From: an uncultured Actinomycetota bacterium
GTDB taxonomy: Bacteria; Actinomycetota; Actinomycetes; JAHEKZ01
Assembly (NCBI GenBank): GCA_963829525.1
Contig: CAWHIJ010000003.1
Location: 832,001-896,000 of the forward strand
Length of the DNA: 64,000 nucleotides
Direction: 5' to 3'
Of this stretch, positions 52,060-58,755 are shown in pieces; the first letter of the stretch is position 1, and every line of letters starts with the position of its first letter. The notes under the pieces are model-generated. The model was not told the DNA's origin and searched no databases. It was given only the letters and a program-made list of their open reading frames with translations. Both the position numbers and the translations under genes were made by a program.

Positions 52060-53691
52060 ATGTACACGCGCCGCAACAGCATCGAGTCGAGTGCGCAGCA
52101 CTGGTGTGTGCTGATTGCGGCCTTGGTGACTACCTGGATGGCCTGGGGGCCATCAGGGCAAGACATCATGACGACCGGCTCGATCGCCTTGATCGGGGCT
52201 CTCGCCTTCAACGCTCTCGCCGTGACACTTCTGGCGTCGCGTGCCGTCCGCAGGGAGCAGACACTCGCGGACACCATGCTCTGGGAGTCGGTCACCACTT
52301 ACGTCAGTCTGCTTCTCGTTTCCGGGCTGATCGCAGTGACAGGAGGTCTTGCGGCTCCGACGCTCTTTGTCGCATTCCTGTGGGCGCCGTATCTCGGTAT
52401 GTCCGTTGAGTTCGGCTACACCATTCGAGGCCTCGTCTTGCTTCTAGGTGGTGCGATTGGGGTGGCTGGCTGGTACTCCGAGACGTGGGCATCGGACTGG
52501 GAGATGGGAGCGTTGGTCGGTGCGGCGCTCCTATTCGTCGTTCTTGTCACGTACTTCTATGCATCTGATCTCTATGCGGAGCGCTTCACCGCTGAGCAGC
52601 TCGAAGCGGCAGTGAGCGAGCGAGTCGACCAGATTTCCCAGATCCTCGTACAGGCTGCCGACGGCGACCTCTCCGTAAACGTCTCTGACAACGGGTCAGG
52701 CATTGAGGCCACTACCAAAACCGAGGAGCTCGACAGGCTCGCCTTGGCCCTCGACCGGACGATTGGCTCGTTGCGGGGTTTGGTGTCTCGGGTGCGGGTG
52801 GGTGGGGAGCAGATTGGGGTGTCTGCTTCGCAGGTGTTGGTGGCTGCTCGGGAGCAGGCTGCTGCTGCGTCTGAGCAGTCGTCTGCTGTGGCGGAGACGT
52901 CGGCGACGATTGAGGAGTTGGCGGCGACGGCGGCTCAGATTGCTGAGACGGCTGAGCAGGTGGCGTTGTTTGCGTCGGAGACGTTGGGGTTTGCTGAGCA
53001 GGGTCGGGTGGCGGTGTCGGCGTCGGTGGCGTCGATGGATCAGATTTCTGTTCGGGTGGATCAGATTGCGTCGAGGGCGTTGGGGTTGGGGGAGAAGGGG
53101 CAGGAGATTGGTCGGATTTTGCAGGTGATTGATGAGTTGGCTGATCAGACGAATTTGTTGGCGTTGAATGCGGCGATTGAGGCTGCTCGTGCGGGTGAGC
53201 ATGGGCGTGGGTTTGCGGTGGTGGCTGCGGAGATTCGGAAGTTGGCGGAGCGGTCGCAGGAGTCTGCTGGTCAGATTCAGTCGATTGTGACGCAGATTCA
53301 GGCGGAGACGAACGCGACGATTTTGGCTTCTGAGGAGGGGTCGCGGGAGGTGCATCAGGGGTCTGCGTTGGCGCGGGATGTGGTGGGGGCGTTGGAGCGG
53401 ATTTCGGGGATGGTTGATGAGACGACGACTGCTGCGAAGGAGATCAGTATTGCGACGCAGCAGCAGCGTTCGGCGTCGGAGCAGGTGGTGTCGGCGATGG
53501 GTCAGGTTGCTGATGTGTCGCGGCAGTATGCGGTGGGGTCTAAGCAGGCGGCGGCTGCTGCTACCGAGCTGAACGTTCTCGCTGGTGACCTCCGCGCCTC
53601 CATCGCCCAATTCAAAACCACCGACGGGGCAACCCGGCGAACCCACGAAAGCACCCCAGAGACCGAACCGGCAACGGGAGACCTCCGGTGA
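52060..53691 (+). CDS. Methyl-accepting chemotaxis protein 1 (polytopic membrane sensor)
   Basis: About 6 TM segments, HAMP-like linker, [37 protein letters not shown]. Confidence 0.93.
52768..53671 (+). repeat. MCP signalling-domain repeat, copy 1 (G/T-skewed, then C/A-skewed)
   Basis: 52768-53619 matches 56018-56869 (offset 3250) and 52768-53671 matches 57835-58738 (offset 5067). One synonymous difference seen, at 53565. Confidence 0.92.
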
Positions 53692-55295
53692 GCGGCATGG
53701 ACGCGGTCAAGGGCAGAGGAGCCATCGAGCTCGAGAACGGCGATATCTACAGCCATCACAACGCTGTTGAGACGATCCTCATTCAGTGGGGACTACCACT
53801 GGTTGCTGTCGGTCTTGCCTGGATGACAACAGGACTGAGCGGCGCCGATTTCACCAGGGTCATCGGCTGGTCTTCGATCGGCCTGATGGTTGCTACTTCC
53901 GCGGTGACCACCGTGTTGGCCGTCTACTCATGGCGACGGCGGATCTACATGGAGATCACCGACTGGTGGGACGGGATTGCTGCACTCGTACTTACGGCCG
54001 GCCTGATCGGGCTGGCTACCGCGACCGGCGGATACCAGAGCCCGGTCTGGTTCGTTCCTTTTGCGGCAGCTGCGTACATAGCGGCCGTCTTCGTCTACCA
54101 ACGCGGCTATCTCGCGCTGGCCTCTCTCTTGGCCATGGTGGTTGCGGCCGGTGTTGTCGCCGATGGCATGACTCAGTCTGACCTTGCCTACGGGCTCGCG
54201 ATTGCCTTGTCGATGTCGGTCACGTTCATGCTCGTCAAAGAGCTTGGTCGGGTGATGTACGACTTGATCTGGGAGACCGGGGAGCATCGGATCTCGCTCA
54301 TCCAAACCGTCTCTGGACTCCGCGAGGTGCTCTCGCGAACCGCCAAAGGTGACTTCACTCAGCTTGCCGAGGACTCCGCCGAGGACGAGACGGCGCTTGA
54401 GCTGCAGGAGAGCGTCAACGAGACCGTGCTGAGTCTTCGCTCGCTGGTGGAACAGGTTCGGCTGAGCGGCCGCCAACTCACGGAGGCCGCTGCGTCGATG
54501 GTGGGGGTCGCACAGCAGCAAGTGGCCGGTGCTGCTCAGCAGAACGGAACCGTCTCGGAGACGACGGCGACGATTGAGGAGTTGGCGGCGACGGCGGCTC
54601 AGATTGCTGAGACGGCTGGGTCGGTGGCTCGGGTTGCGGCTGAGACGTTGGCGTTGACTGATGAGGGTCGGGGTGCGGTGGCTGAGTCGGTTGAGGCGAT
54701 GGATCAGATTCGGTCGGTGGTGGATCAGATTGGGGTGTCGTCTGCGGGGTTGGGGGACAAGATCACGCAGGTGGGTCAGATTTTGTCGTTGATTGATGAG
54801 TTGTCTGAGCAGACGAATTTGTTGGCGTTGAATGCGGCGATTGAGGCGGCTCGTGCGGGTGAGCATGGGCGTGGGTTTGCGGTGGTGGCTGCTGAGGTGC
54901 GGAAGTTGGCGGAGCGGGCTCAGGAGTCGACGAGCCAGATTCAGGGGATTGTGACTGAGATTCAGGCGCATACGCGGTCGACGGTGTTGGCGTCTGAGGA
55001 GGGTGCTCGGGCTGCTGAGCGTGGGTCGGGTAAGGCTGCTGGTGCGGTGGTGGCGTTGGATCGGATTGCGGCGATGGTTGATGAGGCGACCGGTGCTGCT
55101 GAGGAGATCAGTATTGCGACGCAGCAGCAGCGGTCGGCGTCTGATCAGGTGGTGGTCGCGATGACCCAGGTCTCCGAAGTCTCCCGGCAAACGTCATCGG
55201 GTGCTGAGGCCGGCGTGACAGCGGCAGCTCAGCTCGACGTGCTGGCCACCGAACTCGGAGAGTCGATTGCAGCGTTCAGGACGGAGGAGCCATGA
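53688..55295 (+). CDS. Methyl-accepting chemotaxis protein 2 (divergent signalling domain)
   Basis: About 6 TM segments; [41 protein letters not shown] overlap with MCP1. Confidence 0.93.
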
Positions 55296-56973: not shown

Positions 56974-57015
56974 ACCCATCCAGGACGGAACCGCCTGACT
57001 GCCGATGGAGGAGAC

Positions 57016-58755
57016 GTGAGCGCGAGCACTGCTGTGGGTGAAAACCCAGCGCTCGAGTCCGTTCTGGACTCCATCGACCGGACCAAGTCCGGCGGCGCCT
57101 CGCTGTTCTTCAACCGGCGCAACTGTTCGAGACCACCTGCCTCCATTTCGGGCTCATCGCCTTCAGCGTGGCGCTGGGGTTGGTGTTCTTCCGAGGTCAG
57201 GACGAGCCGGTCGCGTCACCGCTCTGGGCGGTATGGGGCGCTGGCCTAGTTGTTGCGTGTGTGGCCGCACTGCTCGCTGTTCGCGCCTTCCGTCAGTCAC
57301 CACACATACCTCCGCACAGACCGCTGGGACACAGTGACGGGGGTTGCCCAAGCCGTTGTGCTCTCCCTTGCCACAATCTGGACCGGTGGTGTGTCGAGTG
57401 CCCAATGGTTATCGATCGTGGTGCTATCGGCCTATCTCGGGACGGTGATGGTCTACCGGGCCGGATGGGCGATGGCTGGGCTCTTGGCGGTGCTACCCGC
57501 CGTGACTCAGTATGCGGCTGAAGAAGCGCTTCCTGACGCGAGCTCAGAGTCTGTGACGATGCTGCTGGCCCTCACGCTCGGGCTGCCGGCTGCCTTCCTC
57601 ATCGTGCGCGGCGTTAGCCGTTCGCTCTACGACACTGCGGAAGGAACCGGCTGGGACCAGGCGCAACTGGTCGACCAGGTGCGCCAACTCTCGGAGGCAC
57701 TGGCTTCGGCCTCGCAGGGGGACCTAACCACGCGCGTGGAACTGGTCCACCTCGATGACTCCGCTAACGAGTTCGGGCTTGAGCGGACTCAGTACATCGT
57801 GGCGCTTTCGCGGTCGTTTGATCATACGTTGGAGTCGTTGCGGGGTTTGGTGTCTCGGGTGCGGGTGGGTGGGGAGCAGATTGGGGTGTCTGCTTCGCAG
57901 GTGTTGGTGGCTGCTCGGGAGCAGGCTGCTGCTGCGTCTGAGCAGTCGTCTGCTGTGGCGGAGACGTCGGCGACGATTGAGGAGTTGGCGGCGACGGCGG
58001 CTCAGATTGCTGAGACGGCTGAGCAGGTGGCGTTGTTTGCGTCGGAGACGTTGGGGTTTGCTGAGCAGGGTCGGGTGGCGGTGTCGGCGTCGGTGGCGTC
58101 GATGGATCAGATTTCTGTTCGGGTGGATCAGATTGCGTCGAGGGCGTTGGGGTTGGGGGAGAAGGGGCAGGAGATTGGTCGGATTTTGCAGGTGATTGAT
58201 GAGTTGGCTGATCAGACGAATTTGTTGGCGTTGAATGCGGCGATTGAGGCTGCTCGTGCGGGTGAGCATGGGCGTGGGTTTGCGGTGGTGGCTGCGGAGA
58301 TTCGGAAGTTGGCGGAGCGGTCGCAGGAGTCTGCTGGTCAGATTCAGTCGATTGTGACGCAGATTCAGGCGGAGACGAACGCGACGATTTTGGCTTCTGA
58401 GGAGGGGTCGCGGGAGGTGCATCAGGGGTCTGCGTTGGCGCGGGATGTGGTGGGGGCGTTGGAGCGGATTTCGGGGATGGTTGATGAGACGACGACTGCT
58501 GCGAAGGAGATCAGTATTGCGACGCAGCAGCAGCGTTCGGCGTCGGAGCAGGTGGTGTCGGCGATGGGTCAGGTTGCTGATGTGTCGCGGCAGTATGCGG
58601 TGGGGTCTAAGCAGGCGGCGGCTGCTGCTACGGAGCTGAACGTTCTCGCTGGTGACCTCCGCGCCTCCATCGCCCAATTCAAAACCACCGACGGGGCAAC
58701 CCGGCGAACCCACGAAAGCACCCCAGAGACCGAACCGGAGCGGGTGGACGTATGA
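57016..58755 (+). CDS. Methyl-accepting chemotaxis protein 4; two compensating frameshifts near 57123 and 57295
   Basis: RBS GGAGGAG plus GTG at 57016. The N-terminus [17 protein letters not shown] is split over frames; the signalling domain matches MCP1 and MCP3. Confidence 0.88.
57811..58738 (+). repeat. MCP signalling-domain repeat, copy 3 (mosaic of copies 1 and 2)
   Basis: Shares its 5' extension and ACG allele with copy 2, and its 52-bp 3' extension with copy 1. Confidence 0.92.

Follow-up and report, generated by a model that had tools for sequence, protein, structure and literature searches.

Why should parts of four chemoreceptor genes in an actinomycete genome write nearly every silent site with G or T and then, over their last 30 or so codons, turn to C and A? 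The question is raised by a stretch of 64,000 nucleotides (hereafter the window: positions 832,001 to 896,000 of contig CAWHIJ010000003.1, assembly GCA_963829525.1) from an uncultured member of the Actinomycetota, which carries four genes for methyl-accepting chemotaxis proteins (MCPs) with repeated signalling-domain halves. An initial annotation, made from the letters alone, had read the skew as a possible signature of biased gene conversion between the repeats, steered by the mismatch endonuclease NucS/EndoMS. It was found that the skew is tied to gene conversion, that the silent sites have changed in one direction, and that the change follows the keto/amino axis (G and T versus A and C). 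The explanation favoured here is strand-polar, keto-biased gene conversion with NucS/EndoMS as its most likely cause; both the role of NucS and the geometry of the exchange are inferred, and this reading is given a probability of about 0.5.

The codon skew and its axis

In the first MCP gene, 263 of the 265 codons at 52768-53562 end in G (186) or T (77), two end in C (AAC and ATC) and none ends in A, whilst leucine is encoded by TTG in 17 cases out of 17. The order is reversed at 53587-53670, where 17 of 28 codons end in C, seven in A and only four in G, and where CAA, AAA, CGA and CCA occur. With a genome-wide share of 0.47 for G or T at third positions, the probability of at least 263 such codons in 265 is about 6e-83, and that of the tail about 3e-4. 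Both counts had been given in the initial annotation, and a recount reproduced them exactly; its statement that the unique 5′ halves of the skewed MCP genes have ordinary codons was also confirmed, and the same is true of two further chemoreceptor genes (C3:361509-362906 and C3:789093-791264). The genes, tracts and tails of the window are as follows.

52045..53691, plus strand: MCP gene 1, an open reading frame (ORF) with uncertain start codon (TTG at 52045 or ATG at 52060); Pfam MCPsignal, E 3.9e-43
52768..53562, plus strand: type-A G/T tract, copy 1 (gene 1), 263/265 codons G/T-ending
53563..53688, plus strand: C/A-rich 3′ tail of gene 1, 31/42 codons C/A-ending, with the core at 53587-53670 (24/28)
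53688..55295, plus strand: MCP gene 2, ORF with Pfam MCPsignal
54556..55189, plus strand: type-B G/T tract (gene 2), G/T share 0.97 over codons 289-489
55292..56884, plus strand: MCP gene 3, ORF with Pfam MCPsignal
55994..56812, plus strand: type-A G/T tract, copy 2 (gene 3), from codon and identity comparison
56813..56881, plus strand: C/A-rich tail of gene 3, matching gene 1 exactly up to the equivalent of 53619
57250..58755, plus strand: MCP gene 4, ORF with Pfam MCPsignal
57811..58629, plus strand: type-A G/T tract, copy 3 (gene 4), from codon and identity comparison
58630..58752, plus strand: C/A-rich tail of gene 4, matching gene 1 exactly up to the equivalent of 53671 (58738)

The genome has seven matches to MCPsignal (PF00015), and the four window genes together with a fifth chemoreceptor gene just upstream of the window reach 129.8-148.1 bits, the curated cut-off being 34.6, which identifies all five as members of the family. 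The type-B block is 100% identical over 634 nt to that fifth gene (C3:831102-831735), 55 kb upstream and outside the window; the identity of type B to type A is 68-81%. A three-phase scan of the 2.96-Mb genome revealed only five stretches with at least 95% G/T over 100 codons, namely the four window tracts and the gene just upstream (C3:831064-831717). When amino-acid content was corrected for in a likelihood scan, the five MCP tracts scored 121-181 and the next G/T-rich segment 26. The MCP tracts are the strongest codon anomaly in this genome.

Each amino acid in the tract is encoded by its most G+T-rich codons: fourfold sites are 71% G, and leucine is TTG and never CTT. The tail mirrors this, with leucine as CTC and with CAA, AAA and GAA, which are rare codons, for glutamine, lysine and glutamate. 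Tract and tail together fit the keto/amino axis only; the purine/pyrimidine and strong/weak divisions fail. Leucine as TTG and fourfold sites at 71% G also mean that the tract is not the product of transitions (C>T and A>G) carried to saturation, which would leave about half of all leucines as CTT and fourfold sites mostly T. The axis and its 3′ flip, as described in the initial annotation, are supported; the rare A-ending codons number 80 of 593 in the tails of skewed MCP arrays versus 23 of 932 in plain tails. C/A-rich segments are not special by themselves, and single-locus genes have them too, several being DUF222 genes. Translational selection on codon usage was rejected as an explanation, as the tract favours the codons that the genome does not prefer: its near-exclusive TTG, ATT and GAT account genome-wide for 10% of Leu, 11% of Ile and 20% of Asp, and TTT and CAT have shares of 12% and 19%.

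Link to gene conversion

The three type-A copies differ at one site (53565) in 852 nt (52768-53619). The G/T run of copy 1 starts at 52768 and those of copies 2 and 3 start 24 nt earlier, and in each copy the start of the run is the start of its identity with the other copies, as the initial annotation had stated in placing the onset of the skew at the repeat boundary. Between species the silent differences in the tract number 21-74, compared with the one site that varies among the three copies in this genome. Paralogues are thus closer to each other than to their orthologues, and they have sharp borders, which is the pattern of gene conversion and concerted evolution.

The same association was found in relatives. 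Public genomes were surveyed for MCP loci, 74 in total, comprising 13 multi-copy loci (at least two copies at 95% identity or more), 39 single-copy loci (flanked on each side by 3 kb of context or more) and 22 loci cut by contig ends; outside the present genome, coverage was of two gene families, located by protein search, and no conclusion depends on a genome marked as unpublished. All tandem arrays of near-identical tracts in relatives from this order are skewed and have a C/A-rich tail, and their sequences differ between genomes. The arrays are 99-100% identical in the 13 multi-copy loci, and all 13 (47 copies) have a G/T third-position share of 0.77-0.97, compared with 0.37-0.51 in 37 of the 39 single-copy loci. 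The two single-copy exceptions are a fragmented array (L127) and an intermediate single copy with a share of 0.62 (L130). Occurrence of the same skew in single-copy genes had been named in the initial annotation as a result that would refute its interpretation; among these loci it is not the rule. Six of the 22 contig-end loci are skewed, with their contigs cut near the gene, as expected for unresolved repeats.

Several genomes are informative about where the skew stops. In G027, two copies lie 68 kb apart and have part of the domain in common, and the skew is limited to the common part; in G004, a paralogue of 60% identity carries a short patch with the pattern of the array; and in G189, where divergence has brought the tandem copies down to 81% identity, these are nearly unskewed (0.54-0.57). 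The protein tree of the MCPs requires at least three changes of skew state. The 72 variable sites within arrays are of mixed types, and their spectrum is uninformative. The identity borders, the conversion patches of G027 and G004 and the near-identity of the copies support a tie between the skew and gene-conversion tracts, and on this point the initial annotation stands.

Other multi-copy families

Comparison of the genome with itself identified five true multi-copy coding families, which are MCP-A, MCP-B, a pair of genes for a B12-binding (corrinoid) protein and two DUF222-HNH families. All five have an amino-acid-corrected G/T excess in the 5′ part of the common block, which is weaker or absent at the 3′ end. 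Four of the families have a difference between the two parts (z5-z3) of +3.4 to +6.8, and MCP-B, with a block that is G/T-rich throughout, has +1.7; single-copy genes have a mean of 0 and a 99th percentile of 3.8.

The B12-binding gene is unrelated to the MCP genes and constitutes a phylogenetically controlled replicate of the contrast in copy number; sister genera have a single copy with ordinary codons. Its two copies lie outside the window (C3:653366-654031, minus strand, and C3:927712-928470, plus strand), inverted and 274 kb apart; they are 99.4% identical, and their G/T third-position share is 0.81-0.82 over the first 150 codons. In five genomes of the genus in which both copies were found the share over codons 1-150 is 0.79-0.90, whilst in seven genomes with one copy, at 85-91% protein identity, it is 0.38-0.53. 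The initial annotation was therefore too narrow in limiting the skew to the MCP tracts, since this duplicated gene has a weaker form of it.

The DUF222-HNH genes were not used as support, since their gradient may be intrinsic to the composition of the family. Twelve DUF222 matches occur in the genome (for example C3:596402-597991, C3:2313442-2314821, C3:1766020-1767384 and C3:2596033-2597493), and the DUF222-HNH genes, among them a seven-copy family of 88-97% identity, run from a G/T-rich 5′ part to a strongly C/A-rich 3′ part. Elsewhere, and uncorrected for amino-acid content, the G/T share of such genes falls from 0.47-0.54 to 0.16-0.25 in G078, whilst the gradient is weak in G056 and mixed in G057.

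Direction and persistence of the change

The direction of substitution was determined in a young skewed lineage (L172, two copies of 99.9% identity), polarised against its plain sisters L166 and L177. At fourfold sites, C changed to G in 34 cases and to T in four and was kept in five, whilst G was kept in 23 of 23; at other sites, C changed to T in 13 cases and was kept in 24, whilst G was kept in 52 of 52. The total of 34 C>G and 17 C>T changes with no G>C stands against two-way change in the plain sisters (C>G 9-17, G>C 8-16). Polarisation of the B12 gene gave the same picture, again with no G>C. Silent substitution is thus one-way and limited to converted DNA, as is characteristic of biased gene conversion. 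The bias is not of the GC type, as is evident from C>T at twofold sites, from GAT, ATT and TTG in the tract and from CAA, AAA and GAA in the tail. Nor is it of a deamination type that consists of C>T and A>G only; indeed, the dominance of transversions (C>G) argues against cytosine deamination. The alleles do sort according to whether the mismatch consists of G and T alone: G or T replaces C or A by transition and by transversion, exchanges between G and T remain free, and the tail has the mirror image.

The state is also maintained. Most of the silent differences that separate species in the tract are G<->T exchanges (21 of 24 and 30 of 41), with which the strain variants in other sequencing runs agree, and this turnover between G and T with the state itself kept indicates that a persistent force maintains the skew. 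Amino-acid differences from single-copy orthologues lean to G/T as well: at codon positions 1 and 2 the window tract has 16 G/T gains versus four losses; the pooled single-copy lineages, which are non-independent, have 81 versus 64. A cause linked to the replication strand was rejected, the B12 pair and the DUF222 families having copies in both orientations within a replichore (origin near 0.28 Mb, terminus near 1.75 Mb, GC skew 0.02-0.06), and so was a genome-wide gradient from 5′ to 3′, the G/T share per decile being flat at 0.46-0.49 over 1957 ORFs.

A mechanism based on NucS

The mismatch-repair setting is as the initial annotation had supposed. A nucS gene (NucS_C domain) was found in six of six actinomycete genomes and the MutS_V domain in none of the six; MutL, searched for in the present genome only (completeness 97%), was not found there. 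In Mycobacterium smegmatis, more than 500-fold removal is reported for G-G, G-T and T-T mismatches carried by oligonucleotides, and every other type escapes (PMC11551767). Loss of nucS has been reported to raise homeologous recombination 10-fold at 90% identity (PMC8228993), and in Haloferax gene conversion is impaired by nucS deletion (PMC11276520). A 2026 preprint on Mycobacterium tuberculosis describes an odd, strand-collapsed spectrum in paralogous regions and names synthesis-dependent strand annealing as the main mycobacterial recombination route (PMC13061034).

From these properties the skew could arise as follows. The signalling-domain halves of the MCP genes would overwrite each other often, so that copies stay near-identical within a genome while species diverge. 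NucS/EndoMS would cut G-G, G-T and T-T mismatches and ignore the rest, and in a heteroduplex between paralogues an incoming strand with G or T opposite G or T would be rejected, whilst one with A or C opposite A or C would be kept. The incoming strand would in this way drift to A and C and its partner to G and T. Over most of the tract, sense-strand G/T alleles would displace C/A alleles, and in the last 30 or so codons the opposite would hold, the flip being the place where the incoming strand changes, for example on either side of an initiating break. New strands that run outward from a break near 53563-53590 would leave the sense strand rich in G/T on the left side of it and in C/A on the right side, which is the arrangement seen. 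At equilibrium the favoured class would occupy all synonymous sites, including TTG in the tract and CAA and AAA in the tail, against codon preference. The wider claim is a tentative one, held somewhat less firmly than the reading of this locus: that the blind spot of NucS for mismatches made up of A and C alone may cause strand-polar, keto-biased conversion in the concerted families of NucS-bearing actinomycetes, overriding codon preference at essentially every silent site, nudging protein sequence and leaving a readable map of conversion tracts and their starts.

In Escherichia coli, which has MutS and MutL, neither gadA/gadB (31 differences in 1401 nt) nor tufA/tufB (13 differences in 1185 nt) has a G/T excess. 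This is a thin control that points the right way.

A number of observations weigh against a NucS-driven conversion bias. The sign of the polarity is not uniquely set by the specificity of NucS, and different recombination models predict opposite signs; the flip sits at about 88% of the tract, a position that the scheme does not account for. The C/A-rich 3′ end of the B12 gene occurs in single-copy relatives too, and the flip is accordingly shown to be array-specific for the MCP arrays only. A pair at 93% identity in G224 is unskewed (share 0.42), and a single copy in G016 has an intermediate share of 0.60-0.62. Independent origins are few: three of three independent pairs in the MCP tree follow copy number (sign test, p 0.25), beyond which there are G027 and the B12 gene. 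All actinomycetes sampled carry nucS, which leaves the group without an internal contrast, and the control with MutS and MutL consists of two gene pairs from one species, of which tuf is under strong codon selection. Finally, the nucS of the present assembly (C3:2346420-2347074; L193 421-1074) appears to be frameshifted by 1 nt at a point 21 codons from its end, with the canonical C-terminus (TLDYDALRG...DRLF) continuing in the next frame. The match to the NucS_C profile covers 105 of 124 positions here versus 117-124 in equally skewed relatives, and NucS without its last five residues has been published as failing to complement a nucS deletion. The frameshift may be an assembly error or a real defect.

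Alternative explanations

The alternative that survives best, though it is judged unlikely, retains the conversion bias and dispenses with NucS, so that a pairing preference of RecA or another mismatch-processing enzyme discriminates keto from amino bases. RecA pairing is said to favour G/T-rich single strands. The evidence from conversion tracts fits this explanation equally well, and the apparently frameshifted nucS of this assembly speaks for it. Against it, no other candidate enzyme was identified, and among the activities described in the literature consulted, NucS alone separates G/T-only mismatches from the rest, by more than 500-fold in vivo (PMC11551767).

Less probable again is selection for a G/T-rich sense strand, or for a G/U-rich and C-poor transcript, in multi-copy genes. 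The benefit might lie in homogenising recombination, through runs of G or R-loops, or in the avoidance of Rho loading within the gene, with a C-rich tail that permits it. The long G/T part lies on the 5′ side in the MCP and B12 families alike, each type-A tract has two sense-strand motifs of the G-quadruplex type (52790, 53075 and their equivalents), and contigs from an RNA library include the tract, all of which would be in keeping with selection. However, single-copy orthologues of the same proteins are unskewed, the skew occurs in two functionally unrelated families, and its boundary tracks copy identity and not the limits of domains or genes; moreover, codons that are rare in the genome (TTG, ATT, GAT) are used throughout, and the amino-acid changes lean in the same direction.

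Damage to single-stranded DNA during recombination, which the initial annotation had offered as its alternative, is improbable. Deamination of C to U, and of A to hypoxanthine, in the single strands exposed by resection or displaced in a D-loop would produce C>T and A>G changes, with opposite strands affected on the left and right sides of a break; it does turn amino into keto bases, the right axis, and a break-centred geometry would yield the polarity observed. The spectrum of L172 disfavours it, with 34 C>G versus four C>T at fourfold sites and 88% of fourfold C changed versus 35% of twofold C, where C>T alone is silent, as do the use of TTG and never CTT for leucine, the flat genome-wide profile along genes and the presence of copies in both replication orientations.

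Errors made in assembling or polishing the repeats, and an origin from foreign DNA with a different codon usage, can be dismissed: although the genome is a metagenome-type assembly in three contigs and short-read contigs end at the borders of the repeats, the tract was found in contigs from four public runs of four studies, the same pattern with different sequences recurs in many independent assemblies of relatives, the changes are almost all synonymous, the boundaries fall within genes and the orthologues in sister genera are ordinary. The tract is not an assembly artefact.

Relation to known systems

Like GC-biased gene conversion, the bias is one of fixation in heteroduplex; it acts on silent and perhaps also on non-silent sites, does not depend on fitness and is found mainly in places of frequent conversion. 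It differs in that GC-biased conversion favours G and C on both strands alike, whilst here G and T are favoured on one strand; C>T, and G>A in the tail, run against GC, and the effect is strand-polar, flips within the tract and reaches about 99% saturation. NucS/EndoMS repair, and the bias that it imposes on oligonucleotide recombineering, divide the bases into the same classes and act on recombination between diverged sequences (PMC11551767; PMC8228993); the enzyme is known for replication fidelity and anti-recombination, and the literature found and consulted mentions no evolutionary footprint in paralogues and no effect on composition. The G+T strand skews of replication and transcription likewise enrich keto bases on one strand, but these amount to a few percent, extend over replichores or entire transcripts and have been put down to transitions, whereas the skew of the tract is almost complete, covers about 0.8 kb, has its limits where copy identity has them, does not depend on replication orientation and includes C>G. 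Repeat-induced point mutation in fungi is also a directional base change limited to duplicated DNA, yet it consists of C>T on both strands and destroys genes, whereas here the frames are intact, the changes synonymous and the copies functional-looking and identical. Concerted evolution of tufA/tufB and gadA/gadB is alike in that conversion keeps dispersed or tandem copies near-identical, the difference being that these E. coli pairs have no G/T excess. A literature search for a keto/amino, strand-polar skew in paralogues found no description of one, although supplementary files (for example those of PMC13061034) may hold strand-resolved spectra.

If the explanation is correct, the substrate preference of a repair enzyme has been written into genes as a near-total, strand-specific recoding of silent sites, and bacterial genes would be shaped by a new force, in which gene copies are copied and repaired from one another in a one-sided way. 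Biased gene conversion would then exist in two kinds, the GC-biased one and this one, whose strength suffices to override codon selection, and NucS, known as a corrector of replication errors, would be seen to shape the outcomes of natural recombination. In any genome with NucS, runs of G/T only and of C/A only would serve as labels of conversion tracts and perhaps of the points where conversion starts. Caution would also be needed in analyses of codon usage, horizontal transfer and dN/dS, where such tracts look like foreign DNA or like the effect of selection on silent sites.

Additional observations

A sediment metatranscriptome run (X15) yielded contigs that cover 52740-53627 at 92-100% identity, with differences that are mostly G<->T; they were not used as evidence of expression, since contigs cannot show transcription. 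The two small contigs of the assembly, C1 (7.7 kb) and C2 (9.8 kb), are rRNA-operon-like repeats with only 87-98% identity to the chromosomal copy (C3:134106-143198), and may belong to other strains in the bin. At one surveyed locus (L037, G018:C3:169000-185000), many array copies have matches split at the same position, near residue 163 of the tract; these copies may have a frameshift in common, or may be rearranged and perhaps decaying, the skew having been retained.

Motifs of the G-quadruplex type start on the plus strand at 52790, 53075, 56040, 56325, 57857 and 58142, two in each type-A tract, and the type-A tracts contain six of the 15 such starts on the plus strand of the 64-kb window. 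Long antisense open frames on the minus strand were located from the list of ORFs and by frame arithmetic.

52696..53646, minus strand: long antisense open frame
53928-55190, minus strand: long antisense open frame
55958-56860, minus strand: long antisense open frame
57724-58866, minus strand: long antisense open frame

They are open because the reverse complements of G/T-ending codons begin with A or C and are never stop codons. With lengths of 300-420 amino acids, and lying exactly over the G/T tracts, they could be mistaken for genes by gene callers.

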